From positions 22,886 through 86,885 of the forward strand of contig JBILGC010000003.1 of NCBI GenBank assembly GCA_044351265.1: DNA of 64,000 nt, given 5' to 3'. This document shows positions 26,287-48,230 of this stretch, one piece after another (the first letter of the stretch is position 1; each line of letters begins with the position of its first letter). Made by a program: the position numbers and the translations under genes. Origin of the DNA: Bacteroidia bacterium (GTDB taxonomy: Bacteria > Bacteroidota > Bacteroidia > UKL13-3). The notes below the pieces were generated by a model that saw nothing but the letters and a program-made list of their open reading frames with translations, did not search any database and was not told where the DNA came from.

Positions 26287-27713
26287 TTTCTTACCAATCC
26301 GGTTTTAGTAATTACAGAACTCTCCTGATAACTTTCGTAGTCGGTATTTATATCCCAAAGGTTATGCCCTGTCTGTTGCAAAATATTTTCGGCAGCCAGC
26401 ATACCCATTAGTATGGAATGATCCTGGTTGTTGTATTTAAATGCGCCATATCGGCCAATAACATGCAGATGCTGAATGCTGCTTAAATATTGCTCAACCG
26501 GGTTCAGAATTTCCTTGTAACCTTTTGAGTAAACAGGATAGCAACGCGGAATGCGATAGGTATGTGCATGTAAAATTTTAGCATCACCAATTAATCCGGT
26601 CTTACGTATTTCCTCCTCGCCCAATTTATTCAGTTGTTCATCTGTCCATTTCCAGAAATCATCTTCATCATAGCACCAATATTCCAAAGCAAGTATGCTA
26701 GTGGTTTTATCCTTATATAATTGTGGAACCCAGTTTCTGAAATTGGTGATGCGCCCTGTGCGCAAATCTGTTGAATGCACATACAGCCAATTATCTTCAA
26801 ACAAATTTGTTGCATCAACTTCAACAAATACTATAATGGTGTTTCTGAAACGCAGCTGCGCATTCAGATTTTTAATTTGCTCCGGGGCCTCATCAATTCT
26901 ACTTACCAAAAGTGTTATCGGCATGGAAGAAATAATATGATCATAATATTTCACCTCGCCATTTTCCAGTTCTAATCCTTTGGCTACTCCGCCCTCAACA
27001 ATTACCCGTTTTACAGGCGTTTTTAAAAACACATTCCCGCCTTTTTCTTTAATCAGATTCTCCATTCGGTTATACACCATGCCTGTTCCCTCAAGCGGAT
27101 AAGCAAATTCGTCTACCAGGGTTTTATGTTTTTTATTTTTATCGCCAAATAATGCAGCCTTAGCAGCCTCCCACAGGGATAGTTTTTTAATACGCTGTGC
27201 GGCAAAATCAGCATCTAGTTCGTTGCATTGAATACCCCAAAGTTTTTCGCTGTAGGTTTTAAAAAATATTTCATAAAGCCTTTTCCCGAAGCGGCTGCGA
27301 ACCCACCCCTCAAAAGTGCTTTTATCTCTGGTTGGAAATATTCTTTCCATTCCAAAACTGAGCATGCAGCGGGCTGCTTCAAATAAGCCCAGTTTGCTTA
27401 ATGCATCAAGTGCTTTAATGGGGTAGTAATACAGGTTATTTTTATAGAGAATGCGTGTAAGGCGATTCACCATTGCATAATCTTCTTTCACTACTTCAAG
27501 CCATAGCGAATTAACACGTGTATCGCTGCTAAAAAAACGATGTGGACCAATATCCACGGTTTGGCCCCATAGCTCAACCGACTTTGCAAGCCCACCAACC
27601 GAAGGACCTGCCTCATATAAATCAACCGATGAAATTTCTTTGCTTAACTGATAGGCAGCAGTAATACCAGCAGGGCCGGCACCAATAACAGCTACTTTTA
27701 TGGATTTACTCAC
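26283..27713 (-). CDS. FAD/NAD(P)-binding amine-oxidase-fold oxidoreductase (UDP-galactopyranose-mutase / protoporphyrinogen-oxidase superfamily)
   Basis: N-terminal dinucleotide fold VAVIGAGPAGITAAYQLSK...VDLYEAGPSVGGLAKS. C-terminal GRYGAFKYNNQDHSILMGMLAAENIL resembles the C-terminal FAD-binding segment of mutase/amine-oxidase-type flavoenzymes. 476 aa. Confidence 0.6.
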   Translation of the reverse strand: MSKSIKVAVIGAGPAGITAAYQLSKEISSVDLYEAGPSVGGLAKSVELWGQTVDIGPHRFFSSDTRVNSLWLEVVKEDYAMVNRLTRILYKNNLYYYPIKALDALSKLGLFEAARCMLSFGMERIFPTRDKSTFEGWVRSRFGKRLYEIFFKTYSEKLWGIQCNELDADFAAQRIKKLSLWEAAKAALFGDKNKKHKTLVDEFAYPLEGTGMVYNRMENLIKEKGGNVFLKTPVKRVIVEGGVAKGLELENGEVKYYDHIISSMPITLLVSRIDEAPEQIKNLNAQLRFRNTIIVFVEVDATNLFEDNWLYVHSTDLRTGRITNFRNWVPQLYKDKTTSILALEYWCYDEDDFWKWTDEQLNKLGEEEIRKTGLIGDAKILHAHTYRIPRCYPVYSKGYKEILNPVEQYLSSIQHLHVIGRYGAFKYNNQDHSILMGMLAAENILQQTGHNLWDINTDYESYQESSVITKTGLVRK

Positions 27714-27753
27714 AATACGCTTTACTTAATAATAAGTTGTAAAGAAAAGACCT

Positions 27754-28302
27754 TTACGATACTTTTTCAAATACAAATACGTGATTAAGCCCAAACTGGA
27801 AAATTTTATGCCTCAGCAGTTTAAATTGCGGTGGAGCAAAGATGTTGGGAGTATCAGCTGTTTTGAAGCCATAGTGCTCCTCTAGCGACATGCCATCTAT
27901 GATGCGAAATAGGCGTAAAACCACCAAAATATAATCAACCAAGGGCGAGGGAACGGTGATGATAACCCTGCCTTTAGGCTTCAGATGTTGATGGCAAGCT
28001 TCAGCCAGTTTATGTTGTGCCTGAGGTGGTATGTGCTCCAGCACAGCCAACATGGTAATACAATCAAACTGTTCACCTGGTGCAAAGGCATCCGGAAATA
28101 TTCCTTTAACCAAACGGTAAGTGCCTGCGTCTGCATTTTCAGCAAGCGGATCCACACCCGCACCTGTAATTTTTTGATGCTGCAACTGCTTGAAAAGTAC
28201 CCCATCATAACTTCCAATATCCAAAACATGAGCGCCTGTATTAATGAATACCGCAGCCTGTGTAATTCTTTGCTTTTGCAGCAAGTAATCAAACGCCTTC
28301 AT
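27754..28302 (-). CDS. Class I SAM-dependent methyltransferase
   Basis: Motif I VLDIGSYDGVL and a post-I acidic region. 182 aa. A 4-nt overlap with the upstream GT2 gene. Confidence 0.7.
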   Translation of the reverse strand: MKAFDYLLQKQRITQAAVFINTGAHVLDIGSYDGVLFKQLQHQKITGAGVDPLAENADAGTYRLVKGIFPDAFAPGEQFDCITMLAVLEHIPPQAQHKLAEACHQHLKPKGRVIITVPSPLVDYILVVLRLFRIIDGMSLEEHYGFKTADTPNIFAPPQFKLLRHKIFQFGLNHVFVFEKVS

Positions 28303-29462
28303 CGCTTGCGGTTAAGGGTAAGAACACTTAAAAAGAAACTTGAAAAAATGGTTTGAATACCAAGGATGATAAAAACAACTGAAGGTATAACCACACGCAG
28401 AATAGACGAGTATTCAAGCGTTCCAAAATCAACCTGATCCCAAAGGTATAATGAGTATGCCGACCCTGCTATTCCCGCAAGCGTAACAAATACACCTGCA
28501 ACAATTCCTCGCTCAAGCGTAAGCCATTTTTCAATAAGTGAAATAGTTTTCTTATCAGGCATGAGTCCCGCTTGAATGGCATACCTGCGTGTAAAAATAC
28601 CAAACACCATTAACTGAAAACCAATGATGGCAGCCGCTCCCGAATAAAGCATTGTATTGGTATCGAAATAAATATTAAACAAATGAACAGGGCCATTAAT
28701 AATAAGCGAACCTGATATAATACCTGATAAAATGAGCAAGATACCCGGGTACAGAAATAACCAGCGCGGACTATAAATGAGTAAAAATCGGAGATGCCTC
28801 CAGCCGTCCTGCCATGTGCGCAAGTGCGGTGGTCGGCTGCGTCCCGCTACACTCAATGTAGTTGGCACTTCGCAGATGCGCAGCTTAAATAAACTAGCTT
28901 TTACAATCATTTCACTGGCAAACTCCATACCTGTGGTACGCAGATTTAAGAGTGATACAATATCTTGCCTAAAGCCACGGAGGCCGCAATGAAAATCGTT
29001 TACGGAGGAGTTAAAGAAAAGCTTTCCGATAAAGGAAAGAACCGGATTACCAAGATATTTATGTAAAAAAGGCATGGCGCCCTTGCTTATGCCACCCTTA
29101 AATCTGTTGCCAACTACCAAATCATATCCCTCTCGCAATTTTTCAATAAAAGGATTCAGGGAAGAAAAATCATAGCTGTCATCTGAATCACCCATGATTA
29201 CATACTTGCCATATGCAGCTTCGATGCCGTACATCAATGCACTCCCATAGCCCTTCTCGGGTGCATGCACCACACGGGCACCCAACTTTTCGGCAATAGC
29301 AATGGAGCCATCAGTGCTTCCGTTATCAGAAACTATTACTTCTCCGCTGATATTATTCTGCCTTATGTAACGCAATGCTTTTTCAATGCATTCGCCAATG
29401 GTTTCGGCCTCATTTAGGCAAGGCATTACAATAGATAATTCAAGATTATGTTCCGGGGTCAT
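28299..29462 (-). CDS. Family 2 glycosyltransferase, polyprenyl-phosphate sugar synthase type (GtrB/DPM1/ArnC-like), with C-terminal membrane helices
   Basis: LSIVMPCLNEAETIGECI...VIVSDNGSTDGS...YVIMGDSDDSYDF (a GT-A DxD region), then about 4 C-terminal TM helices. 387 aa. Confidence 0.8.
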   Translation of the reverse strand: MTPEHNLELSIVMPCLNEAETIGECIEKALRYIRQNNISGEVIVSDNGSTDGSIAIAEKLGARVVHAPEKGYGSALMYGIEAAYGKYVIMGDSDDSYDFSSLNPFIEKLREGYDLVVGNRFKGGISKGAMPFLHKYLGNPVLSFIGKLFFNSSVNDFHCGLRGFRQDIVSLLNLRTTGMEFASEMIVKASLFKLRICEVPTTLSVAGRSRPPHLRTWQDGWRHLRFLLIYSPRWLFLYPGILLILSGIISGSLIINGPVHLFNIYFDTNTMLYSGAAAIIGFQLMVFGIFTRRYAIQAGLMPDKKTISLIEKWLTLERGIVAGVFVTLAGIAGSAYSLYLWDQVDFGTLEYSSILRVVIPSVVFIILGIQTIFSSFFLSVLTLNRKR

Positions 29463-35014: not shown

Positions 35015-36067
35015 TTAGTTAAGCAGTTGATATTCGAAACGTGGGGATCCCTTGTTTCCATTATCATCATAAAAATCTAGAAAACGTAACTTATATACCA
35101 GGTATGGCGAATTCCTGTAGCGTAAGAAATAGTTAATATATGTTCTGGTTCTGTATCGAACACCGTTAGGTGTAAAATCAGGATACTTCCATTCAAACCC
35201 GATTTGATCCCTATCATTCAAATAACAAAGAGCAGGATTGAGGGAATGATTAAATTTAATATCATAAAACGTAAGCGTACTGTCTATAGCCGCATCAAGT
35301 ATTCTTCTATTTAGATGAACACCTGTAACCTGATAGAGCAAGGGTGGATTAAATTCATAATAAATCCAACGGTATCGTAAGAATTTAAAATGCCAATTAT
35401 GTATAGGCGGCTCAAAATTATAATAAGTGCCTCCGTTATCGAATGAAAAATAAACCAGCATTTTCTCAGGAGACTTATAAATATTAGTTTCCTTAATGAA
35501 TCTACCTGACATATCCGCCACTGAGATAACATACTTCTGAGGAGTAACAGCAATTATTTTAAACTTAAAAATGTTATCGGGACTGCTTGAGCCCTTTCCC
35601 CTATCTACAACATAAACACTATCGAAAGTTTTGCGACTATGCCTATTACACCAATGGCTTAGTGCAAGAGAGTCCGGATTACCGGAGGCCTCATCCCATC
35701 GCCAATTTAGCTCAGAATAGTTTGTAACAGTAGAAAAATCAGTGCTGCCTGTATTTGCAACCAATACATTCTTGCCCCCATTTATATAAATAGCAAAACC
35801 TTCAGGTGCTGCATCAAAACTTAAATCCCAAGAATTATTATCTACAGACTGAACAATTCCTGAGTCAAGGTTAATATAAACCTGCTTGTCATACTCAGTG
35901 CCTAAATCAACACTCATCATGCGCACATCAAGATCTCTGGGAGGTAATTTAACAGGCGCCTCTTCTTTCTCACATGATGAAATAAACATCATCATTGCCA
36001 ATATGTATGTGATATATCTTAATAATATCATTCTCTGTCTATACTTAATTGATACTGAATTGCACAA
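35015..36067 (-). CDS. HmuY-like heme-binding lipoprotein
   Basis: Lipoprotein signal ...MMMFISSC. The motif NNSWDLSFDAAPEGFAIYINGG resembles the HmuY-family WDLAF region. Immediately downstream of, and overlapping, a TonB-dependent receptor gene. Confidence 0.5.
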   Translation of the reverse strand: MCNSVSIKYRQRMILLRYITYILAMMMFISSCEKEEAPVKLPPRDLDVRMMSVDLGTEYDKQVYINLDSGIVQSVDNNSWDLSFDAAPEGFAIYINGGKNVLVANTGSTDFSTVTNYSELNWRWDEASGNPDSLALSHWCNRHSRKTFDSVYVVDRGKGSSSPDNIFKFKIIAVTPQKYVISVADMSGRFIKETNIYKSPEKMLVYFSFDNGGTYYNFEPPIHNWHFKFLRYRWIYYEFNPPLLYQVTGVHLNRRILDAAIDSTLTFYDIKFNHSLNPALCYLNDRDQIGFEWKYPDFTPNGVRYRTRTYINYFLRYRNSPYLVYKLRFLDFYDDNGNKGSPRFEYQLLN

Positions 36068-38085
36068 AAGTAGGTTCTACCCATAGACACAGCAGCATTA
36101 TTGCCTGCCGGTGCATGCGGACCTGCAGCTAAACTAGCTTGAACATTGAGCACATCCAACATATTTTTTACACCTGTTTGAATGGTAAGTTTTTGATTAA
36201 AGAAACTTCTGCTTGCAGTAAGATCAAGCAAAGTAAATCCATCAATAAAACCCGTTTTAACTTCGCCATCTGTAATATTGTATTGAAACAGCTGCATAAG
36301 TGAATTATATTTACAGAACAATGCAACCTGCATTTTAATTTTTTTAATGAGATACCTTGCATTGCATCGATACTCATGATTTGTAAAATATTTGTCAGTA
36401 GCAATCATATTGGTAAATGTGTTGTTGATACCGATTAGCGCATAGCCCAAGCTAACAGCATAATCAGGTGCTACATATTCTGCCGTAATATTAGTCCCGA
36501 CATTTCTGAAATCGCTAATGGATGTGTAGCATGCCTCCAAGGTATTGCTGTTTAACAGAACTAAATCTATTTTATTAAATATTTCATTGTAAAATAGTGC
36601 AACATCAACTTTTAGCATGTTTTCTTCTAACAGATGCTGGTGGGTTAAACTTAGCTGATAGTTATTTTGGGTTTCGGCCTTCAAATCCGGATTGCCCTTT
36701 ATATTGTGAGCAGGGTCAGTAAAGTTTAAGTAAAGCTCTTTAAGTGTTGGCGATCGGAAACCCCTGCCGAAAGATGCACGAAGGCTTAAATCCGAGCGAA
36801 TATCCCACTTGAGATTTAACGATGGAATAATTGGGGCCTGATACTTACTGTTATAGGTTAAGCGCATTCCTGGCCTTAGAAGTAGCCGCTGGAAAAACTT
36901 TAATTCCATGCTTGCAAAACCACTTATATCGGTTAAAGATTGTGTACCATTGGAAATACGATTGCCGGTAAACTGATCATAGGTTGTTTCATAGCCCAAC
37001 TGATAATTATATTTAGCCTTATCCTTATTTCGGGAGAATGTTCCCCTGCTCATAACATTCTTAAAGTAACCTGTATCCTGCAGGTGGGCCTCAGGCACCA
37101 GATTTTCCTGTAGTGTAACAAGATCTTTTCTGGTGGTATTTACAATTCGTCTGTAATGGTTATATGCAGCCACAATATGCAGGGAGTGGTTGCTAAAAAG
37201 TTTTTGCTCATAAAATGCAGCGGTTGATATCCTTCTTGTATAATAGTACTGATCTATTCCGTAAGCGCTGTAAGGCGTAATGGTGCCGGAATCCCTATTG
37301 GTTACTTTCTCATCAAAAATACTTCCGGTTATCCTGAGCGATGAATGGGTAAACTTTTTAGAAATGCTCAAATCTCCAAAATACTGTGTGCGTGGTTTCC
37401 AAAGTTTTACCCTCGAATCCTCATTTTGAGCAAAGCCGTCAAAAAAATTTCTTGATCCATTTACCTCCAATCTCCATTCTCTGTTGAGATAGATACTTGT
37501 AAACAAATTGAGATTATACTGGCCGATATTCTCATAATAGGCTTTGGCCCCCAGCTGGTCATGAGGCTTGTATGATTTTTTTGTAATCAGATTAATGACA
37601 CCGCCCAATGCATCTGTTCCAAAACTCACACTCATGGGGCCCTCTACTACTTCTATTCGTTCAATATTGTTTAAGTTAAGTTGATTGAGGTCGATAAAAT
37701 TCCCTTCGCGCCCCACAACAGGCACTCCATCAATCATAATTTTTATGTTCTGACCATTAATGCCTTGAATACTCAAACCGCTTCCCAATGCAGGGTCGTT
37801 GTTAATGCGCACATTCAGTTCATTGTTCAATAAATCACGAAGGTTGACGGCACCTTGCTGCTCAATTCTTTTTTGCCCGATTACTTTTACCCTGTAAACC
37901 GATTGCGAAAGAGAGTTTTCTGCATATTGCCCCGTTATCACTACATCTTCCAGTTGCTTACTTTTTGAGGCATCTGGCTGTTGTGCCATTAAAGGTACAA
38001 AAACAACAAACACCATGCAAAACATGGTGAGTGTCATTTTTAACCTATATGAAAAATTATATTTCAACCGGAATTTACTCCACAA
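36028..38085 (-). CDS. TonB-dependent outer-membrane receptor (HmuR-like heme/hemoprotein receptor candidate)
   Basis: Signal peptide. TonB box/plug DVVITGQYAENS...RIEVVEGPMSVSFGTDALGGVINLITKK. 685 aa with a 22-strand barrel length. Ends in an aromatic-containing terminal strand. Confidence 0.85.
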   Translation of the reverse strand: MWSKFRLKYNFSYRLKMTLTMFCMVFVVFVPLMAQQPDASKSKQLEDVVITGQYAENSLSQSVYRVKVIGQKRIEQQGAVNLRDLLNNELNVRINNDPALGSGLSIQGINGQNIKIMIDGVPVVGREGNFIDLNQLNLNNIERIEVVEGPMSVSFGTDALGGVINLITKKSYKPHDQLGAKAYYENIGQYNLNLFTSIYLNREWRLEVNGSRNFFDGFAQNEDSRVKLWKPRTQYFGDLSISKKFTHSSLRITGSIFDEKVTNRDSGTITPYSAYGIDQYYYTRRISTAAFYEQKLFSNHSLHIVAAYNHYRRIVNTTRKDLVTLQENLVPEAHLQDTGYFKNVMSRGTFSRNKDKAKYNYQLGYETTYDQFTGNRISNGTQSLTDISGFASMELKFFQRLLLRPGMRLTYNSKYQAPIIPSLNLKWDIRSDLSLRASFGRGFRSPTLKELYLNFTDPAHNIKGNPDLKAETQNNYQLSLTHQHLLEENMLKVDVALFYNEIFNKIDLVLLNSNTLEACYTSISDFRNVGTNITAEYVAPDYAVSLGYALIGINNTFTNMIATDKYFTNHEYRCNARYLIKKIKMQVALFCKYNSLMQLFQYNITDGEVKTGFIDGFTLLDLTASRSFFNQKLTIQTGVKNMLDVLNVQASLAAGPHAPAGNNAAVSMGRTYFCAIQYQLSIDRE

Positions 38086-39367
38086 TAAATTTACCTGCTA
38101 CCATACCGTTAGGAGTTTCTACATTATAGAAATAAATTCCTTTAGCCATAGAGTCGGTATTAATCTTTGTACGAAAACCACCATCAGCAGATTCCATATT
38201 TGTTTGATAAATGCTTTTCCCGGTTAAATCCACAACCGCAAGACGTGCTTGCTTAGCTTCTGTAAATACCTCTATGGTTAAATCGGTTTTAGCTGGGTTT
38301 GGATATGCGAGTGTACGTGCCACGTTACTGTTTACTTCAGATACCGAAGTAATATCTATTGACGATTTATTGAATACAATCACATTTGGATTTGCATCAA
38401 ATCTGTCAAATAAGATTCTGTATATCAAGTTACCTTTTTTAATGAAGAAGGCCATCGTATCAACAATAGGCCAAGAAGGAGTAGGTGGCCCCATAGGTGA
38501 AACTTTCCAGTCCCATCCAATTGTATTGATTATCGATGAATATGCTTTAACCATGCTGCGGTTTACGGTATCCCTTTTAACACCTAACACACGAGCTGCC
38601 ATCACATTTGCAGGATTAATCAACACACCTGTTACATTGTAAAATGTATCGGCTCCCAGGTAATTTACCTTCGCATGGTAGCGGGCAAATAATATATCCC
38701 AGTTGGCTATTGGTGGTTCACGATCAACCAAGGTCTTATTCAAGATATTATAGTATGCAAACATTTTGCCGGTGAAGGCTGCTTTATTAAAACTCACATA
38801 ATTGCTATCTGTATTATTTAAATTGGCAAATGTAAAGTTCCATGTTGTATCAAGAGTAAGCTGATTAATCATGAGTTTTTTATAAACGGTATTTGCGCCA
38901 TTTCTTATGGCAAAAAGATAAATGACTTTGCCATCAATGTGGTGCGTATTCATGCTGTAATCTCCCCAGCCAAAATCAAACCCATTGGTTCTTCCCTGAT
39001 TTAGCGCTCCAACATCCCATGATGTATCACTGTCTCTAACCACGGTCCAATTTCTCCAGTTGGTTGTATCAAAATTATTCCATGAAGCAGGTGCTTGTGT
39101 TGATTTGTATACGGTAACACCACGAGCCATATTTATGCGAACGGTAGCTGCCAATAATACATTCATTGGCGGCTGGGCATTTCTAACCGAGAATGCAATA
39201 TGCCAGTTGGTGTTTCTTGCTGTATCCTTGGCACCGGTGGTGATATTATAATACACATCCAACGGATAATTAGTTGAACCACCGCCCATGGAAACTGAAT
39301 CGGTGGTTTGGGCTTGTAATTGGCTAATGATAAAGGCGCCAATAAGAAGAAGTAATAGTTTTTTCAT
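38075..39367 (-). CDS. HmuY-like protein carrying a T9SS C-terminal sorting domain
   Basis: Signal peptide MKKLLLLLIGAFIISQLQAQ. NTNWHIAFSVRN resembles the HmuY WDLAF motif. The C-terminus TLAYPNPAKTDLTIEVF...GIYFYNVETPNGMVAGKFIVE is a T9SS CTD. Its stop overlaps the start of the TBDR gene. Confidence 0.5.
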   Translation of the reverse strand: MKKLLLLLIGAFIISQLQAQTTDSVSMGGGSTNYPLDVYYNITTGAKDTARNTNWHIAFSVRNAQPPMNVLLAATVRINMARGVTVYKSTQAPASWNNFDTTNWRNWTVVRDSDTSWDVGALNQGRTNGFDFGWGDYSMNTHHIDGKVIYLFAIRNGANTVYKKLMINQLTLDTTWNFTFANLNNTDSNYVSFNKAAFTGKMFAYYNILNKTLVDREPPIANWDILFARYHAKVNYLGADTFYNVTGVLINPANVMAARVLGVKRDTVNRSMVKAYSSIINTIGWDWKVSPMGPPTPSWPIVDTMAFFIKKGNLIYRILFDRFDANPNVIVFNKSSIDITSVSEVNSNVARTLAYPNPAKTDLTIEVFTEAKQARLAVVDLTGKSIYQTNMESADGGFRTKINTDSMAKGIYFYNVETPNGMVAGKFIVE

Positions 39368-39606: not shown

Positions 39607-42051
39607 ATGAATACAATTTTGCAAAAAAAATGGTTTCCTCACCTGGCGGCCATCATCATTGCGCTTACTGCCATTATCATTTATTTCAATCCGCTCCTTT
39701 CCGGAAAAGCACTTAAACAACATGATGTGCAGCAATGGCAAGCAACCTATAATGAAATAAACCAATTTCAGAAAGCAACAGGAGAGCGAACCTTTTGGAC
39801 CAATGCTGTTTTTAGCGGCATGCCCACCTATCTCATCGGGCCTTCCTACAGAAAGAACTTTACATCTACGGTAAGTGCCTATATCAGCAAGGTTTTACCT
39901 AACCCGGTTGATACCATGTTTTTGCTGTTTATCTGCTTTTATATTTTATTGCTCACCTTCGAGGTTTCGCCCTGGCTGGCCATTGCAGGAAGCTTGGCAT
40001 TTATGTTTTCCTCGTTTAACCTTATAAATATAGATGCAGGACACGTTGGAAAAGGTAATGCCATTGCTTTTATGCCGCTTGTGCTGGCTGGCATCAACTA
40101 CACTTTACGAAAAGACAAATGGATAGGTGCACTGCTTACCGGCATTGCACTTTCCCTACAACTGGCTGCAGGCCACCTTCAGATTACTTATTACTTGATG
40201 ATGCTTATTGGCGTCTGGATGCTGGCAGAAATATTTATTGCTGCTAAAAACAAGCAGTTTGCTCAACTGCTGGTATGCGGAGCCTTTATGGCCGTTGCCG
40301 CTTGCATTGGTGTGGCTACAGGGGCCAATAATCTGATGCCTACAGAGGAATACGGCAAATACAGTATACGCGGCAAATCAGAACTCACCAAAACATCCTC
40401 CGGTGAAGGCAATGCCGCCATAGCTTCATCAGGCCTTGATAAAGACTACGCCCTGCAATGGAGTAATGGTGTTGCTGAGCCTTTTACCTTACTTATACCT
40501 AATTTTTATGGTGGATCAAGCTCAGCTGAGCTTAGCACCAGCTCAGAAACATATAAAATTTTAAAACAAAACGGGGTACCCAATGCCAAGCAAATTATTC
40601 AGGGCATGCCTGTTTATTGGGGCGACCAGCCTTTTACAGCAGGTCCCATTTACTATGGTGCCATTGTTTGTTTTCTTTTTGTGCTGGGGCTTTTTGTAAT
40701 TAAAGGTCCTGAGAAATGGTGGATTCTGGGCATCTCAACTCTCGCTATTCTCCTTTCTATGGGCAAAAATTTTATGTCGCTAACCGATTTATTCTTTTAC
40801 AACTTTCCGCTATATAATAAATTTCGCTCTGTAACTTTTATTCTATGTATCACCCAAACAACATTCCCGCTGCTGGCCCTGCTGGCCGTGCGTGATATAC
40901 TTTCAGGAAAAATAAAGGCAACAGATTTAAAGAAACCCTTATTGTATAGTTTCTATATTGTAGGAGGCCTATGCGCAGTTTTTGCATTTGTACCTAATAT
41001 TTTTCTTAGTTTCATCTCGCCTGTTGATGATCGCCTACCAGAATGGCTCAGACAGTCGATTGTAGATGACCGTGAATCATTATTAAAATCAGATGCACTG
41101 CGCTCTTTATTGTTTATTACGGCATCATTTGCTCTAATCTGGTTTTATTTAAAAGGCAAATTTTCAGAAACTATTTTTATCGTTACTCTTACTGCACTTG
41201 TTGTAATTGATTTGTGGGGAGTTGATAAACGTTATCTGAATGATTCAGATTTTGAAACCAAAAAGAAAAACCTGGAAGCTTCCTTTCCCAAATCGCAAGC
41301 CGATGAAATGATTTTGCAGGATAAAGACATCCACTACCGTGTTTACAATACAACACAACGTTTGGATCAGGATGCCCTTACCTCTTACTGGCATAAATCC
41401 ATTGGCGGATATCATGGTGCTAAAATGCGCAGATATCAGGAGTTAATTGAATTTCATTTGTCGCGTGGCAATATGCAAACCTTCAATATGCTTAATGTTA
41501 AATACTTTATTGTGGGCGACAGTGCCAATAATATGTTTGGTCAGCAAAACCCTGACGCCAATGGAAATGCATGGTTTGTAAATAAAATTCTTACTGTTGC
41601 CAACGCTGATGCAGAAATAGATTCACTAACCAATCTCAATACCAAAACTACGGCAGTTGTTGATACACGCTTTGCCGATATGCTTAAAGGTTTTACGCCA
41701 ACGGCAGACTCTGCAGCATCGATTAAACTATTAAGTTATGCTCCTAATAAACTGGTTTATGAATCGAACAGCAGTGCGGATAACTTGGCTGTATTTTCTG
41801 AGATTTATTATGATAAAGGATGGAAAGCAAGCATTGACGGACAATCGACAGATTATTTGCGTTGCAATTATGTATTAAGGGGTATGAAGATTCCTGCAGG
41901 TAAGCACCGTATAGAATTTGTTTTTGAACCGGAGGTAGTTACTACCGGAGAGCGCATTTCATTATTTGCCTCTATTGCTTTGTATGGCGGAATTGTGGTG
42001 GCCGGTGGCCTATCCTTTTTCAGTAGAAGAAAAACAGAACCAAAGAGCTGA
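39607..42051 (+). CDS. YfhO-family polytopic membrane protein (GT-C-like glycosyltransferase/flippase family)
   Basis: 814 aa. About 13 N-terminal TM helices, a soluble domain of about 330 aa and a final C-terminal TM helix. The N-terminal pattern ...PLLSGKALKQHDVQQWQATYNEINQF...FWTNAVFSGMP fits YfhO-family proteins. Confidence 0.65.
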   Translation: MNTILQKKWFPHLAAIIIALTAIIIYFNPLLSGKALKQHDVQQWQATYNEINQFQKATGERTFWTNAVFSGMPTYLIGPSYRKNFTSTVSAYISKVLPNPVDTMFLLFICFYILLLTFEVSPWLAIAGSLAFMFSSFNLINIDAGHVGKGNAIAFMPLVLAGINYTLRKDKWIGALLTGIALSLQLAAGHLQITYYLMMLIGVWMLAEIFIAAKNKQFAQLLVCGAFMAVAACIGVATGANNLMPTEEYGKYSIRGKSELTKTSSGEGNAAIASSGLDKDYALQWSNGVAEPFTLLIPNFYGGSSSAELSTSSETYKILKQNGVPNAKQIIQGMPVYWGDQPFTAGPIYYGAIVCFLFVLGLFVIKGPEKWWILGISTLAILLSMGKNFMSLTDLFFYNFPLYNKFRSVTFILCITQTTFPLLALLAVRDILSGKIKATDLKKPLLYSFYIVGGLCAVFAFVPNIFLSFISPVDDRLPEWLRQSIVDDRESLLKSDALRSLLFITASFALIWFYLKGKFSETIFIVTLTALVVIDLWGVDKRYLNDSDFETKKKNLEASFPKSQADEMILQDKDIHYRVYNTTQRLDQDALTSYWHKSIGGYHGAKMRRYQELIEFHLSRGNMQTFNMLNVKYFIVGDSANNMFGQQNPDANGNAWFVNKILTVANADAEIDSLTNLNTKTTAVVDTRFADMLKGFTPTADSAASIKLLSYAPNKLVYESNSSADNLAVFSEIYYDKGWKASIDGQSTDYLRCNYVLRGMKIPAGKHRIEFVFEPEVVTTGERISLFASIALYGGIVVAGGLSFFSRRKTEPKS

Positions 42052-42057
42052 TAAATT

Positions 42058-43668
42058 ATGCTGGAAGTATTGATGCTCATGCTCTATGCCACTTTCCTGG
42101 GCTATGCTGCAGGGGTATCCACCATACTTTCTATTATGAAATTAACTGGCGAGCATGAGCCCTGGCATCTGCGCTCACCTCTTGTGGTTATTATAGGATT
42201 TGCCGTTATCTCATGTATTATTTCCATTCTACATTTTTTGATTCCGCTGGATTGGCACTCTCATGTTATAATCTGGATCTTCATAAGCGCTGCCCTTAAC
42301 GCTTGCAGCAAACAGTTAGTAAGCGTATTCCCTGATTTGATTTACCGCATACGAAAAAGCATATGGTTTAATTTAATCCTGCTGCTTATTGCCATAGTAA
42401 GTGTTTGCATAAAACCCGGTAGTGGTGATATTGCCGATTATCATCTGCAAGCAATCAAGTGGGCTGAGTATTATAAATTACTTCTGGGTATTGGTAATTT
42501 TAACCGACCCTTGGTTAATAACAACTGGTGGTTTAATCTACAAGCATTTTTCGGATGCCACAATGCTGGTTTTCATTCGGTGTATGTATTAAATGGAATT
42601 TGGTACATCCTCCTCATGATTTATTTTACACGCAATCTGAGTGAGGCTAGGCAACGCTTGTTTCGTGTTCCAATCATTTTGTTTTTACTGCTTATGGTTA
42701 AAACTGCCTTTATCGGCAGCGTAACTCCGGATATTGTCATTACAGGGATTATTTTCCTGTGTTTTGATCTGTATTTGGAAAGTAAGCAAAACAACGCATC
42801 TAAAGGCTTTTACAGCATCATTATTTCCTTACTCATATTCTGGGGAATTACCATTAAAGCCACCGCCTTGCTGCTGCTATTTTTAAGTTTATTGTTGTTG
42901 TGGTTTCTTCGTGGCAACAAACAATTTCGGATTTATTTTTTAATGATAATTGCGCTCGGGTGCATTTGGCTCTTTCCCTGGCTAGCTGGCAATGTGGTAC
43001 GTGGCGGTTATTTGTTGTATCCATTTAATCAAATTGATTGGTTCCAGGTTGACTGGAAAGTTCCTGCCTCCTATTTTGAATACGATAAAATTGTTTTAAA
43101 AGGATGGGGGCGCATACCACATTCAGATATATATGCAACGGCAACCCTAACCTATAATCAATGGGTACCCGCTTGGTTTATCAACCTTGATATGTTTAAT
43201 AAAGGACTGGTACTGGCATTTATTGCATCGGTAATAAGCTTGCTGATTACTTCCTTCAAACAAAAATCATTTCCCATGCAAGCATTGGCTGCTCTGGTAG
43301 GTTGGTTCATGTTGTTTAACAGCGGCCCTCACATGCGTTTTATGTACGGATATATGGTGGTGATAATGGGCATAGCCTTATCACAATACAATTTGCCTTC
43401 ATTTGCTTGGGCACGAAAAGCTTATATGGGTATCTTATGTTTGCTACTGATTTGGTTAAGCGTAACCCACTCGGATAAATTATCCTTTTTTCATACACAG
43501 CCTTATCCGCAAAATAATCTAACTCAAAGCAGCATCAGTGGTTTTCCTGTTTATGTGGTTCAATCAAACAACCTATGCTGGGATCAATTTCCATGCACCT
43601 ATTATATCGCAGATAAAATTATGCTGCGCACACCTGATATCAATGATGGGTTTAAGGTTAAAGAGTAA
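42058..43668 (+). CDS. Polytopic membrane protein, putative GT-C-fold glycosyltransferase/polymerase-like (uncharacterised)
   Basis: 536 aa with at least 12 TM helices. An Asp-containing first-loop motif PGSGDIADYHLQAIKW and a large periplasmic-loop-like region near the C-terminus. 6 bp after yfhO. Confidence 0.35.
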   Translation: MLEVLMLMLYATFLGYAAGVSTILSIMKLTGEHEPWHLRSPLVVIIGFAVISCIISILHFLIPLDWHSHVIIWIFISAALNACSKQLVSVFPDLIYRIRKSIWFNLILLLIAIVSVCIKPGSGDIADYHLQAIKWAEYYKLLLGIGNFNRPLVNNNWWFNLQAFFGCHNAGFHSVYVLNGIWYILLMIYFTRNLSEARQRLFRVPIILFLLLMVKTAFIGSVTPDIVITGIIFLCFDLYLESKQNNASKGFYSIIISLLIFWGITIKATALLLLFLSLLLLWFLRGNKQFRIYFLMIIALGCIWLFPWLAGNVVRGGYLLYPFNQIDWFQVDWKVPASYFEYDKIVLKGWGRIPHSDIYATATLTYNQWVPAWFINLDMFNKGLVLAFIASVISLLITSFKQKSFPMQALAALVGWFMLFNSGPHMRFMYGYMVVIMGIALSQYNLPSFAWARKAYMGILCLLLIWLSVTHSDKLSFFHTQPYPQNNLTQSSISGFPVYVVQSNNLCWDQFPCTYYIADKIMLRTPDINDGFKVKE

Positions 43669-43697
43669 TGTATAAAAGCGCTCTCTGCTCTTTACAG

Positions 43698-44342
43698 TTA
43701 TTTTTCACCTATTAATAAAAACTGCTTACCCATAAAAGGCCATACGATTGGCATATTTAAATAAGTGCGCACCAAGAATGCATTTACCGGCAACTTGCTT
43801 TTAAATGATAAAGGCAAAAACTTTGGATGCACCTCAATAGGATTAAACCCCGCACCATATAAATGCTCTGCTACGCCACCTTCGGAAAGCAGTACCGTAT
43901 GATCTGCAAAATCAAAATAATACTTATAAGTATATTTAAAGTTAGGCCCCATAATGGCGATACGGCCCCCGGGTTTGATGGCCTTATACATGCGCTCCAG
44001 AAAAAATGCAACCTGCTCTTGGCTGTGCAAGTGCTCTAAAAAATTGGAGATAAAAACCCCATCAAAATAATTTTCAGGCAAATTTACTTCTAAGTTATTT
44101 CCGGTAATAACTTTAATACCTTGATACGCCATCTTAGGTGTAATTTCACTCATATCAACTGCCCAGCGTTCCTCAGAAGGAATCTGATTGATGAACTCAC
44201 AATCACCTGCAGCAGGATCGAGCATGCGCTCTGGCTTACCCAATTTGTGGTAAATAAACGTGGCAATCTCCTTCCAAGTCATGAGTTTTTTCTCACGGTC
44301 AACATCCTTAAAGCGGTATTCGTATATGCGGTCGTAGTTCAT
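43698..44342 (-). CDS. Class I SAM-dependent methyltransferase (MT type 11-like)
   Basis: Motif I MLDPAAGDCEFI, post-I acidic VDMSE, motif III YFDGVFISNFLEHL. 214 aa. Confidence 0.7.
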   Translation of the reverse strand: MNYDRIYEYRFKDVDREKKLMTWKEIATFIYHKLGKPERMLDPAAGDCEFINQIPSEERWAVDMSEITPKMAYQGIKVITGNNLEVNLPENYFDGVFISNFLEHLHSQEQVAFFLERMYKAIKPGGRIAIMGPNFKYTYKYYFDFADHTVLLSEGGVAEHLYGAGFNPIEVHPKFLPLSFKSKLPVNAFLVRTYLNMPIVWPFMGKQFLLIGEK

Positions 44343-44354
44343 AGAAATTAAATT

Positions 44355-45083
44355 TTATCGTTGCCTGTTCTTTGGCAAATCATAATGGTCTGAAAATATT
44401 TCAAGATAAACTTTGCGCATGTCTTTTATGGTGCGCATGATGTTTTTAAAGCTGGTTGAAGCACCCTGACCAAATTTGCGCGGAAAAGTTTGAATGCCAA
44501 CCTCACCCACTCTATAACCCTTTAGCATGGTTTTAATGGTGAGTTCAGCACCTATAAACGGGCTATCGGTAATTAAACTGATATCGGCTAAAATATCTTT
44601 TCTCACCATGCGTAATCCGGTACTGATATCACGGAAATTTGTTCTGAATATCCAACGCAACACTCGGTTGTAGATATATGAAATGAAAATGCGTTTGTTA
44701 GAATATATTTTTTTGTATCGGAAGCTAATAATCAAATCGTAGTAATCCTTTAACTTAATGAGCTTTTTAAATTCCTCCATATCATACTCATCATCTCCAT
44801 CTGTAAAACAGATATAATCATATTGGGCAGCACCCAAACCTGATTTCACTGCAGCACCATAACCGAGATTTTTGGGATGATGCATGACCCTTACGTTCGA
44901 ATAAAGATTAGCTAATTCATCGGCAATTTTTCCTGAATTATCAGGGCTGCAATCATTGATGATAATAACCTCAAACATGCCTGCACACTCCTTTCCAAAA
45001 GCAAGTGCCTTTTCCGTAACAGTTTTCACTGTTCGCTCGTCATTATAAACCGGAAAGAATATGCTAATATTAGGCTTGTTCAT
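44355..45083 (-). CDS. Family 2 glycosyltransferase, soluble polyprenyl-phosphate glycosyl synthase type (Dpm1/GtrB catalytic domain without TM tail)
   Basis: ISIFFPVYNDERTVKTV...VIIINDCSPDNSGKIA...YICFTDGDDEYD (DxD). 242 aa with no hydrophobic helices. Confidence 0.8.
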   Translation of the reverse strand: MNKPNISIFFPVYNDERTVKTVTEKALAFGKECAGMFEVIIINDCSPDNSGKIADELANLYSNVRVMHHPKNLGYGAAVKSGLGAAQYDYICFTDGDDEYDMEEFKKLIKLKDYYDLIISFRYKKIYSNKRIFISYIYNRVLRWIFRTNFRDISTGLRMVRKDILADISLITDSPFIGAELTIKTMLKGYRVGEVGIQTFPRKFGQGASTSFKNIMRTIKDMRKVYLEIFSDHYDLPKNRQR

Positions 45084-45099: not shown

Positions 45100-45843
45100 T
45101 TAAAATTTCAGTTTTTTAAATATAAACCACGGCAAATATTGCAACACCCATGATAATGGCAACCAAAAAACCGGTACATATGCCAATCCTGTATCTTTAT
45201 TTCTGTTCTTAATCAGGACTTGCGCAACGCGCTCAGGCTTTGCAACAGGAAACAATAATTTCTTACCTCTGCTTAAAGCTGTTTCCATGTAACCTGCCCT
45301 ATATACCTGAATACGCATAGGGCCAGTTGCAAAATGATGCCGTAAACCTAAAGCCATATATTCCAATGCGATTTTTGAAGCACTGTAGGCAATATTGGCT
45401 CCGCGTGGCCTAATTGCTGCAATAGAAGATATGACAGTGATATTGGATGCCTTATTTTGAAGATGCATACAGCAGGCACGCATAATGTAACTAATGCCTA
45501 AACAGTTTACCTGCATAAGCTTTGGCAGATAATCAACCGAATCGGAGCCTTTATCCCGATCATCAATAATACCTGCAGTAATATAAACTTGCGTGCAATT
45601 GGGCATCAAATCAAAACATTGTTGCATAAAAATTGCTGCCGAATCTGCATCGAGTGCAGCCAGATCAATCGGTTTCACCGCAGCATTTATCTGATATCTA
45701 ACTTGCAAATGAACAGACAAAGCCTTCAAGTCTTCTTCGCTGCGTGAACTGATGATTACATCATGACCTGCTTTGGCCAATTGCTCTGCAACGGCTCTTC
45801 CTAAGCCTGAACTTGCTCCAATAATGAGTGCTGCTTGTTTCAT
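45100..45843 (-). CDS. Short-chain dehydrogenase/reductase, DprE2-like (decaprenylphospho-2'-keto-sugar reductase homologue)
   Basis: TGxxxGxG ALIIGASSGLGRAVA, a YxxxK catalytic dyad (YSASK) and the C-terminal hydrophobic tail VPVFWLPLSWVLQYLPWFIFKKLKF. The tail resembles my recollection of the M. tuberculosis DprE2 C-terminus (...[22 protein letters not shown]). The start codon overlaps the stop of the upstream DprE1-like gene. Confidence 0.65.
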   Translation of the reverse strand: MKQAALIIGASSGLGRAVAEQLAKAGHDVIISSRSEEDLKALSVHLQVRYQINAAVKPIDLAALDADSAAIFMQQCFDLMPNCTQVYITAGIIDDRDKGSDSVDYLPKLMQVNCLGISYIMRACCMHLQNKASNITVISSIAAIRPRGANIAYSASKIALEYMALGLRHHFATGPMRIQVYRAGYMETALSRGKKLLFPVAKPERVAQVLIKNRNKDTGLAYVPVFWLPLSWVLQYLPWFIFKKLKF

Positions 45844-47159
45844 TATAATTCTAATCTTGTTCTTAATTCACTACCAAATCGCTTTTGCACATCGTGCTTA
45901 TTAAGTGCTTGCTTAAATTGCTCATATTGCGGAAAACATTGTTTTACCAGTTGCGCACCTGCTCTGCTGTCTTTACTTAAATTAATAATGCCACCATATT
46001 TTAAAGTAATTTTATCCAATGCCTCAAAAAAAGAAATCGATTTTTTGTTATTAGGCACATCAATGGTAACACAGAGTCCGCTTCCTGAAAAACTGATATT
46101 ATGAGGCTCCCCTTTAAATATTTTTAATGAGCCTAATGCAATTGGCATATTCATTTGAGCTATGATTTTCTGAATTTCAGCAACAGCTGCCGACCATTTA
46201 TCTAAATCAAATATCACTTGGTATTCTCTGAATCCTTTTTTACCAAAAAAATAGTAGTACACCTCTTTGCTATAAATAGGGAATGAAGCCTGCACCAAAT
46301 CAATCACACGATGTCGAGGTTTCACCGCATCCATTAACTCATAAACCCTGTTCATGGCTTTAATGGTAAAGTTATTATACAATACAGGTATATTTTTAAA
46401 CCGATTGAGCTTATTGATATAAGGTTTAGGATTCAATATCTTTTTTTCTGATAAATGATTTTCAAGGTACACAATGCCTTTTCCAAAATGCTTACCCCTT
46501 AGGTTAAAATTATTCCAAGCATAAATATAATCATACTCTTCGGCCTTCTCGGTCATCAGCGCAACGGCTATATTCATATTCGGAACTTTAACGGCCTCAA
46601 CTAACATAAGGTTGCCGCTTATTTTCTTTAATACAATGCTTGCCGAAACAATAATACCCGTTAAGCCCATGCCACCAACAGTTAAATTAAACAAGGCTGA
46701 CCCCGGTAAGCATGTTTGCAAGCCATAATCCGGATGAAACAGCGTAATTGAATGTACCCAATTAATGAACGTGCCAACCTTATATTGAGATTTGCCATGC
46801 ACATTAAAACCAATGCAGCCCCCAACGGTAATGGCAGGATAACCCGGCAAAACAGGAAGTACCCAGTTTTTAGAAATCAGAAAATTGTTAAGCTCCCCTG
46901 TTGCTATTCCTGCCTCAACGGTAATTATACCTTTCTCCTCATCAAATGCCAATATGCGATTAAACTGCCTCATATCCACAGATAAGCAATAATTACCTGA
47001 AGCCGCTGCGCTGTAAGATAAGCCTGCACCACGAGGAATAATTGGCCTGAGCAATGGCAGGTTCAATAAATCATGGTAACGCTCTGGTTGAAAGAGGTCA
47101 CTGCTGGTAGCAATTGTTTTATCAAAACTTTGAATGGGTTGAGACATTTTATCCATCAA
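45843..47159 (-). CDS. FAD-binding oxidase, DprE1-like (decaprenylphosphoryl-beta-D-ribose 2'-oxidase family)
   Basis: PCMH-type FAD domain IIPRGAGLSYSAAASGN, VLPVLPGYPAITVGGCIGFNVHGK, TVGGMGLTGIIVSASIVLKKI and a C-terminal ...FGSELRTRLEL. These align motif-for-motif with what I recall of M. tuberculosis DprE1 ([57 protein letters not shown]; ...ASDMARRLELL). 438 aa. Confidence 0.75.
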   Translation of the reverse strand: MMDKMSQPIQSFDKTIATSSDLFQPERYHDLLNLPLLRPIIPRGAGLSYSAAASGNYCLSVDMRQFNRILAFDEEKGIITVEAGIATGELNNFLISKNWVLPVLPGYPAITVGGCIGFNVHGKSQYKVGTFINWVHSITLFHPDYGLQTCLPGSALFNLTVGGMGLTGIIVSASIVLKKISGNLMLVEAVKVPNMNIAVALMTEKAEEYDYIYAWNNFNLRGKHFGKGIVYLENHLSEKKILNPKPYINKLNRFKNIPVLYNNFTIKAMNRVYELMDAVKPRHRVIDLVQASFPIYSKEVYYYFFGKKGFREYQVIFDLDKWSAAVAEIQKIIAQMNMPIALGSLKIFKGEPHNISFSGSGLCVTIDVPNNKKSISFFEALDKITLKYGGIINLSKDSRAGAQLVKQCFPQYEQFKQALNKHDVQKRFGSELRTRLEL

Positions 47160-47288: not shown

Positions 47289-48230
47289 ATGGCTGAAAAG
47301 ATTTTAATTATCGGTGCCAACGGACAAATTGGTACCGAGCTGAGTGCAGAACTCAGAAAAATTTTTGGAACCGACAACGTAGTTACCTCCGATATCAAAG
47401 CCCCGCAGCAAGCTGAAGGGCCTTATGAGTTGCTGGATGTAATGGACAGAGAAAGCATGTATGCCATTATTAAAAAACATGGCATTACGCAGGTATATTT
47501 ATTGGCTGCATTGCTTTCGGCCACGGCAGAGAAAAATCCTAAGCTGGGTTGGGACCTAAACATGCAGGGATTGTTTAATGGTTTAGATGCTGCCAAAGAA
47601 GGACTGATAAAAAAGTTGTACTGGCCAAGCTCTATTGCTGTTTTTGGACCCACAACCCCGCGCATAAATACTCCTCAATATACAGTAATGGAGCCCAATA
47701 CCATTTATGGAATAAGCAAACAGGCAGGCGAGCGTTTTTGCGAGTATTATCACCAGAAGTATGGTGTAGATGTGCGTAGTTTGCGCTACCCCGGATTAAT
47801 TGGCTACAAATCGGCACCAGGCGGTGGAACCACAGATTATGCCGTTCATATTTATCATGAAGCATTAAAAAATAAAAGCTACGAATGCTTTTTAAAAGCA
47901 GGCACAGTTTTGCCTATGATGTATATGCCTGATGCCTTACATGCAACCATTGAACTGATGGAAGCACCTGCAGAAAAGGTGAAGATACGCAGCAGTTACA
48001 ATATTGCAGGTGTAAGTTTTGATCCGGAAGAAATTGCAGCATCCATTCGCAAACACATGCCTGAATTTACCATTAGCTATAAGCCTGATTTCAGGCAAGC
48101 CATTGCCGATAGCTGGCCTGCCAGTATTGATGATACTCAAGCACGCGATCACTGGGGCTGGAATCCGCAATATGAACTGGATAGCATGACCAAGGACATG
48201 CTACACCATTTGGGTAGCCAAGCTTCATAA
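47289..48230 (+). CDS. NAD-dependent epimerase/dehydratase family protein, most similar to GalE-like L-threonine 3-dehydrogenase
   Basis: ILIIGANGQIGTEL Rossmann fold. YGISK (YxxxK) and a conserved C-terminal block RSLRYPGLIGYKSAPGGGTTDYAV...SWPASIDD typical of short SDR-type TDH enzymes. 313 aa. Confidence 0.55.
   Translation: MAEKILIIGANGQIGTELSAELRKIFGTDNVVTSDIKAPQQAEGPYELLDVMDRESMYAIIKKHGITQVYLLAALLSATAEKNPKLGWDLNMQGLFNGLDAAKEGLIKKLYWPSSIAVFGPTTPRINTPQYTVMEPNTIYGISKQAGERFCEYYHQKYGVDVRSLRYPGLIGYKSAPGGGTTDYAVHIYHEALKNKSYECFLKAGTVLPMMYMPDALHATIELMEAPAEKVKIRSSYNIAGVSFDPEEIAASIRKHMPEFTISYKPDFRQAIADSWPASIDDTQARDHWGWNPQYELDSMTKDMLHHLGSQAS

Follow-up and report, generated by a model that had tools for sequence, protein, structure and literature searches.

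The DNA analyzed here, referred to as the window, is a 64-kb stretch of contig JBILGC010000003.1 from a Bacteroidia bacterium (assembly GCA_044351265.1), and its minus strand carries four consecutive genes encoding a DprE1-like flavin adenine dinucleotide (FAD)-dependent oxidase, a DprE2-like short-chain dehydrogenase/reductase (SDR), a family 2 glycosyltransferase (GT2), and a methyltransferase. The window has a low GC content (approximately 0.39) and contains TonB-dependent receptor and type IX secretion-tail genes, and its closest relatives are uncultured Bacteroidia and Sphingobacteriales metagenome-assembled genomes (L006 and L007), with protein identities of 95% and 86%. The four genes, together with two membrane protein genes on the plus strand that converge on them, are as follows.

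45843..47159, minus strand: DprE1-like FAD-dependent oxidase, 438 amino acids (aa) from a TTG codon, Pfam FAD_binding_4
45841..45845, minus strand: oxidase/SDR stop-start overlap TAATG, base 45843 common to both genes, sequence read directly
45100..45843, minus strand: DprE2-like SDR with a hydrophobic C-terminal tail, 247 aa, Pfam adh_short (93 bits)
44355..45083, minus strand: short soluble GT2, predicted polyprenyl-phosphate sugar synthase, 242 aa, Pfam Glycos_transf_2
43698..44342, minus strand: class I S-adenosylmethionine-dependent methyltransferase, final gene of the operon, 214 aa, Pfam Methyltransf_11/12/25
42058..43668, plus strand: LIC_10190/DUF8201 polytopic membrane protein, candidate second transferase or flippase, 536 aa, NCBIfam LIC_10190_fam (197 bits)
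39607..42051, plus strand: YfhO-family polytopic membrane protein, candidate GT-C transferase, 814 aa, Pfam YfhO and NCBIfam PgfM1/PgfM2

The oxidase gene overlaps the SDR gene by 1 base, and gaps of 16 and 12 nucleotides separate the SDR gene from the GT2 gene and the GT2 gene from the methyltransferase gene. The oxidase/SDR junction reads ...GAA TTA TAA TG AAA..., in which the TAA stop codon and the ATG start codon both use base 45843, and the shared nucleotide claimed in an earlier interpretation of the letters and translations (the sequence-only reading) is thus present. The two open reading frames (ORFs) also lie where that reading had placed them, and the strings that it quoted, namely, RGAGLSYSAAASGN, VLPVLPGYPAITVGGCIGFNVHGK, TVGGMGLTGIIVSASI, and the C-terminal RTRLEL of the oxidase and the hydrophobic tail VPVFWLPLSWVLQYLPWFIFKKLKF of the SDR, all occur in the translations. 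The TTG at position 47159 is a mechanical start of the oxidase ORF, with in-frame ATG codons at 47156 and 47147; one of these two ATG codons is likely the true start, since close homologs of the window oxidase are 434 to 435 aa long.

The 438-aa oxidase is a genuine full-length homolog of DprE1, with a similarity far beyond chance. In a phmmer search against all Protein Data Bank (PDB) chains, residues 38 to 438 align with residues 56 to 467 of DprE1 (E value of 4.9e-34), and the DprE1 proteins of Mycobacterium smegmatis and Mycobacterium tuberculosis are the top matches, with E values from 5e-34 to 5e-33, followed by LctD, which is matched in the FAD domain only (2.7e-6). A profile built from 29 sequences of the oxidase family matches DprE1 with an E value of 3e-59, with the next PDB family at 2.9e-18. 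The BLASTP identity with M. tuberculosis DprE1 is 27% over 414 aa, which is above 20%, and the DprE1 strings given in the sequence-only reading occur in the aligned PDB DprE1 chains. An AlphaFold2 model of the oxidase has a pLDDT of 90.4, and a Foldseek search of the PDB with this model returned DprE1 for all of the top 48 matches (TM scores of 0.81 to 0.86), with the next family at an E value of 1.8e-25. DprE1 is therefore the best match by sequence, profile, and fold, ahead of any unrelated family of FAD-linked oxidases, and the full-length nature of these three matches indicates that the C-terminal substrate-binding domain is present. Among the NCBIfam models, the DprE1 equivalog model NF053785 scores highest by far (226.2 bits, compared with 41 bits for the next family), although this score falls under its cutoff of 500 bits.

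The conservation extends to individual residues. Y49, H121, K123, Q314, K346, and K396 of the oxidase correspond to Y60, H132, K134, Q336, K367, and K418 of M. tuberculosis DprE1, whose roles as catalytic and FAD-site residues are established by structural work on DprE1; among 29 clade members, the positions of H121, K123, Q314, K346, and K396 are invariant and that of Y49 is Tyr in 25. The sequence-only reading had left the residue at the position of DprE1 Cys387 to be determined, and it is Thr365, with mostly Ala or Thr across the clade, so that the oxidase lacks a benzothiazinone-type covalent site. Cys387 is dispensable for activity, as the naturally resistant species Mycobacterium avium and Mycobacterium aurum have Ser or Ala there (PMC6015584).

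On weaker but specific evidence, the SDR is, as judged from its sequence, DprE2-like. The cofactor motif G9-x-S-x-G13-x-G15 and the catalytic tetrad N113, S140, Y153, and K157 vary little or not at all, and the SDR aligns with DprE2 from end to end, including the C-terminal tail, with 25% identity. Many SDR families match the window SDR about equally in sequence searches, and the DprE2 chain 21gq_C is the sole PDB match that spans positions 2 to 243 of the 245-position SDR profile. The DprE2-type C-terminal extension of about 45 residues, ending in ...IP..IF(R/K)KL, is present, and the motif Y-x-P-x-F-W ... (L/I)-P-W-x-I-F-K-K-L-K of this tail also occurs in SDRs from UbiA-linked loci and is absent from FabG. 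A profile of the tail only (the last 52 columns of the family alignment) scores 26.2 bits on the M. tuberculosis DprE2 tail, a value reached by none of 2,000 shuffles of that tail (-1.1 ± 4.3 bits; maximum of 9.2 bits). This agrees with the likeness to the DprE2 C terminus pointed out in the sequence-only reading. A PDB search with the last 65 SDR residues as a single sequence gave no significant match. The SDR scores 80.8 bits over its full length with the NCBIfam DprE2 equivalog model NF053786, under the cutoff of 250 bits.

The pair nevertheless separates from the mycobacterial enzymes. In a neighbor-joining tree of 35 oxidase sequences, M. tuberculosis DprE1 and five UbiA-linked homologs are split from 29 GT2-linked sequences, including the window protein, in 100 of 100 bootstraps; the identity with M. 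tuberculosis DprE1 is 36% to 38% for the five UbiA-linked sequences and 23% to 29% for the clade of the window protein. A single, un-bootstrapped neighbor-joining tree of the SDRs shows the same split between UbiA-linked and GT2-linked contexts. Seven aligned key positions of DprE1 differ clade-wide, namely, T118 (Y or H), R119 (P), S228 (Y), Q334 (E), V365 (S), N385 (C), and Y415 (N), and these residues presumably line the substrate pocket, as judged from DprE1 structures. In all five loci examined around more distant SDR homologs from the protein database (L086 and L088 to L091), the adjoining gene encodes a UbiA-type prenyl-phosphate phosphoribosyltransferase (PPPRS), which is often fused to a HAD phosphatase, with a phosphoribosyl pyrophosphate (PRPP) synthetase gene alongside in one locus. 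As the scores fall under the cutoffs, the clade is separate, and the neighbor is a GT2 and not a UbiA gene, these comparisons indicate that the window oxidase and SDR are not orthologs of the ribose-to-arabinose epimerase. Of the match to DprE1 and DprE2 proposed in the sequence-only reading, the homology therefore stands, whereas orthology to that epimerase does not. The pair is part of a lineage that is sister to the PRPP/UbiA-coupled DprE1/DprE2 enzymes and is itself coupled to a GT2, and the sugar of the pair is therefore probably not ribofuranose.

The gene context of this lineage was surveyed by scanning one genome per species, which gave 80 loci from about ten phyla, including Bacteroidota, Acidimicrobiia, Bdellovibrionota, Acidobacteriota, Proteobacteria, Obscuribacterales, Candidate Phyla Radiation (CPR), Planctomycetota, and other groups, with neighboring genes assigned by tblastn and clustering. 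Among the 75 loci with enough downstream sequence, the SDR gene lies immediately 3' of the oxidase gene in 66, and a short GT2 of about 245 aa, with at least 55% identity to the window GT2, is present in 48, directly after the SDR gene in 44 of them. Most loci without the short GT2 have a longer GtrB-like GT2 immediately upstream instead. The oxidase and SDR genes overlap at 55 of 72 junctions (39 with ATGA and 6 with a one-base overlap), so that coupling is a family trait, with the one-base form of the window in the minority. Tblastn places a methyltransferase homolog inside the block in 31 of the 75 loci, and clustering does so in 40 of 81; where in the gene order it lies differs among loci, and in six of them, an FkbM-type enzyme replaces the Methyltransf_11 type. 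The median identities with the window proteins are 59.5% for the GT2, 36% for the oxidase, 34% for the SDR, and 33% for the methyltransferase, which makes the GT2 the most constrained member; the short GT2 retains 55% to 72% identity across phyla, with about 80 invariant columns. The closest block from outside the Bacteroidota is that of Candidatus Daviesbacteria (CPR; L003), with 52% to 53% identity for the oxidase, 50% for the SDR, and 72% for the GT2, and this likeness suggests horizontal transfer of the module. The Candidatus Daviesbacteria block is surrounded by several PMT-type GT-C genes, methyltransferase genes, and a DegT aminotransferase gene.

With two PPPRS sequences as tblastn queries, no UbiA homolog was found in the window or within 10 kb in 85 GT2-linked loci, where the GT2 gene is nearly always adjacent. 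This bears directly on the explanation that the pair is a canonical DprE1/DprE2, which would convert undecaprenyl-phosphoryl-β-d-ribofuranose to the arabinofuranose, a conversion known from mycobacteria, from the group IV pilin glycosylation of Pseudomonas aeruginosa, and from some O antigens, with the PRPP-dependent UbiA-type synthase elsewhere in the genome and the GT2 serving another step. The annotation pipelines of the Joint Genome Institute call such homologs decaprenylphospho-β-d-ribofuranose 2-oxidase and the corresponding 2-ulose 2-reductase, the lead of the DprE1 model over every other NCBIfam family and the conserved catalytic residues are in its favor, and the analysis covers only 64 kb of the genome. 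We nonetheless regard it as unlikely, because the UbiA-linked pairs form their own clade with M. tuberculosis DprE1, the positions of Q334, V365, N385, Y415, and T118/R119 are replaced throughout the other clade, and both window proteins score under the equivalog cutoffs.

The GT2 is, from its sequence matches, a predicted polyprenyl-phosphate sugar synthase. Its whole-domain NCBIfam matches are confined to Dol-P-hexose transferase, AglJ, ArnC, PgfS, and PpgS, and those in the PDB are confined to ArnC, DPMS, and GtrB. The methyltransferase matches only generic methyltransferases in the PDB. The genes co-localized with the module give no consistent clue to the identity of the sugar; GDP-mannose-dehydratase-like, RfbF-like, DegT, and C-methyltransferase genes each occur in 5 to 19 loci and look like generic neighbors of polysaccharide clusters.

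The pair might also perform a different chemistry on the same class of lipid-linked substrate, such as oxidation at C3 or C4, or C-methylation of the keto sugar before its reduction, which would yield a branched or otherwise modified sugar. The occurrence of methyltransferases of two unrelated families at variable positions in many blocks is consistent with this, as are the differences from DprE1 at aligned key positions, and an N-acetylhexosamine donor would preclude oxidation at C2 by established chemistry. However, the methyltransferases are of the generic class I or FkbM type and not of the TylC3 type, the C-methyltransferases that act on keto sugars, and the residues of the DprE1 catalytic geometry are kept, so we hold this chemistry to be improbable as well. 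That the enzymes act on a soluble or nonglycan substrate, as do the sugar-lactone and alditol oxidases of the vanillyl-alcohol oxidase superfamily, with only incidental adjacency to glycosylation genes, seems very improbable, since the matches of the oxidase to L-galactono-1,4-lactone dehydrogenase, xylitol oxidase, and similar enzymes cover the FAD domain only and are about 40 orders of magnitude worse than that to DprE1, and although the SDR fold is generic, the SDR has the DprE2-type hydrophobic tail and the oxidase-SDR-GT2 order is kept across about ten phyla.

Membrane proteins accompany the module. In every locus inspected, a protein with 7 to 11 predicted transmembrane segments adjoins it, a few of these having weak PMT_2 or putative glycosyltransferase matches. 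In the window, the Pfam and NCBIfam PgfM1/PgfM2 matches of the YfhO-family protein cover its C-terminal part only, and YfhO-like genes also lie beside the module in loci of Acidobacteriota and Obscuribacterales (L042, L050, L052, and L054). DUF8201 is found in the syntenic loci L001 and L002, and LIC_10190 is linked to the module in close relatives only. A gene for a 320-aa flippase-like protein (LPG_synthase_TM/TIGR00374) lies directly 5' of the oxidase gene in eight mostly proteobacterial loci (L033, L041, L057, L066, L068, L074, L079, and L080); the window lacks this gene, whose product is a candidate for flipping the lipid-linked donor. Neither the window nor any of the 85 loci has a GtrA homolog. 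An extra gene of the F420_oxidored/NAD_binding_2 type, encoding 203 aa, lies between the methyltransferase and LIC_10190 genes at positions 10509..11120 of L001 and at the same place in L002, L007, and L008; it is missing from the window, where only 29 bp separate these two genes (43668..43698).

We consider it rather probable that the four-gene operon makes a modified lipid-linked sugar donor for Gtr-like extracytoplasmic glycosylation. By homology with ArnC, GtrB, DPMS, and PpgS, the GT2 would take a sugar from its nucleotide-activated form and attach it to polyprenyl (undecaprenyl) phosphate on the inner side of the membrane. The DprE1-like flavoenzyme, whose homology is clear, would then oxidize a secondary hydroxyl of this sugar to a ketone, at C2 by analogy, and the coupled DprE2-like SDR would use NAD(P)H to reduce this ketone from the other side, which would yield the epimer. 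As judged from its co-occurrence, the methyltransferase then probably methylates the sugar. The gene context is consistent with the donor then being flipped, after which the adjacent YfhO-type candidate GT-C protein, possibly together with the LIC_10190 protein, may transfer the sugar to an envelope glycan or protein. A broader proposal, which we put forward more tentatively, is that the module represents a second and anciently diverged lineage of lipid-linked sugar epimerases that is fed from ordinary nucleotide sugars, in place of PRPP, by a highly conserved soluble GT2, is joined by a methyltransferase, and yields an undescribed methylated and epimerized polyprenyl-phosphate donor, with which YfhO-like or other GT-C proteins may decorate the envelopes of at least ten phyla, including CPR.

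Several points weigh against this pathway. The GT2 has no transmembrane helices, and a lipid acceptor is predicted for it by homology. The window contains no recognizable flippase, and no small membrane ORF fits between its genes. The YfhO and LIC_10190 genes are convergent with the operon and are not cotranscribed with it, and their linkage to the module holds in some lineages only. Fold searches do not separate the window SDR from generic SDRs, and two uncharacterized NCBIfam SDR models, PRK07102 (126.5 bits) and PRK08251 (104 bits), outscore the DprE2 model, each under its own cutoff. The loci were retrieved with clade-specific peptide patterns, and the survey is thus not an unbiased census; in addition, a PPPRS could lie outside the 64-kb window, and the absence of UbiA from the genome is not proven. 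Homology, conserved catalytic residues, gene coupling, a conserved neighborhood, and clade separation are established by the sequence comparisons; the rest of the pathway (lipid acceptor, regiochemistry, methylation target, flippase, and final acceptor) is deduced from gene context.

The system would work as a hybrid in which the GT2 and GT-C components of the Gtr or CsbB-YfhO type are combined with on-carrier epimerization of the DprE1/DprE2 type. It resembles mycobacterial DprE1/DprE2 (Rv3790/Rv3791) in the adjacent and tightly coupled oxidase and reductase genes, the two-domain flavoenzyme fold, and the SDR tail. It differs in its 25% to 27% identity, its scores under the cutoffs, the Thr in place of Cys387, and the clade-wide replacement of Q334, V365, N385, and Y415, and its neighbor is a GT2 instead of the PRPP:polyprenyl-phosphate phosphoribosyltransferase Rv3806c, without GtrA-like Rv3789 or arabinosyltransferases of the Emb/Aft type. 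With the Gtr (GtrB/GtrA/GtrC), CsbB-GtcA-YfhO, and Streptococcus Pgf systems, it shares a predicted polyprenyl-phosphate GT2 and a YfhO-family candidate GT-C protein in one neighborhood, whereas GtrB has a C-terminal membrane anchor that is missing from the window GT2 and there is no GtrA-family flippase in the vicinity; to our knowledge, none of these systems includes oxidation and reduction of the lipid-linked sugar.

A lipid-linked monosaccharide donor that is exported and then used by a GT-C enzyme for extracytoplasmic transfer is a feature that the window system would have in common with the three-component pentofuranose side-chain systems of Gram-negative bacteria (PMC11127046) and with the d-arabinofuranose (d-Araf) pilin pathway of Pseudomonas aeruginosa Pa5196/PA7. 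The three-component systems include optional cytoplasmic epimerization, with homologs of DprE1 and DprE2 for Araf (Kelly et al., PNAS 2024, PMC11127046). The pentofuranose systems start from PRPP through a UbiA-type PPPRS that is often fused to a HAD phosphatase, and L086 and L088 to L091 are of this type, with the same UbiA arrangement as the arabinofuranose systems of Kelly et al. (PMC11127046); the window system differs from them in its GT2 donor synthase, the methyltransferase within the block, and an epimerase pair from another clade. In mycobacterial methylthioxylose capping, which was compared by its description (PMC12088412 and PMC11127046), the GT2 MtxS (Rv0539) likewise makes an unusual polyprenyl-phosphate donor that the GT-C protein MtxT (Rv0541c) uses outside the cytoplasm, but that donor comes from 5'-methylthioadenosine, unlike the one proposed for the window system.

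The homology itself is not new, as DprE1/DprE2 is the label that such genes already receive from annotation pipelines; what appears to be new is the distinct lineage with its gene context. A literature search found no paper that connects DprE1 to YfhO or describes it in a GT2-coupled setting and no paper on LIC_10190 or DUF8201, and Kelly et al. state that they are unaware of further epimerases in the side-chain glycosylation systems of O-polysaccharides (PMC11127046). On-carrier sugar epimerization is known essentially from one pathway, the conversion of ribose to arabinose by DprE1/DprE2, which ranks among the leading drug targets in tuberculosis and, as shown recently, also diversifies the O antigens of Gram-negative bacteria. 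If the proposed pathway is correct, a GT2-fed lineage in many phyla would make on-carrier epimerization a more general strategy, and the envelopes of Bacteroidota, Acidobacteriota, Bdellovibrionota, CPR, and other groups would contain an unknown sugar. It would also call for caution in the automatic annotation of such genes as DprE1/DprE2 or with arabinose and could provide new enzymes for glycoengineering.

Other genes of the window lie on both sides of the operon. A plus-strand gene at 47289..48230 encodes a 313-aa protein of the NAD-dependent epimerase/dehydratase family, whose best NCBIfam match is D-erythronate dehydrogenase, well under the cutoff; it was rejected as a member of the system because it is divergent from the operon and syntenic in close relatives only. 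On the minus strand, 35015..39367 encodes in a row an HmuY-like protein, a TonB-dependent receptor, and a Por_Secre_tail protein of the type IX secretion system, which are syntenic in relatives and unrelated to the oxidase/SDR system; these genes probably serve the uptake of haem or nutrients. Also on the minus strand, 23344..29462 holds another putative system for lipid-linked sugars.

28299..29462, minus strand: GT2 with C-terminal transmembrane helices
27754..28302, minus strand: methyltransferase
26283..27713, minus strand: amine-oxidase-like flavoprotein
23344..26286, minus strand: 980-aa PMT-type GT-C protein with TPR repeats

An amine-oxidase-like flavoprotein also adjoins GtrA in the UbiA-linked loci L086, L089, and L090, and pathways for polyprenyl-phosphate sugars may therefore include such a flavoprotein repeatedly.

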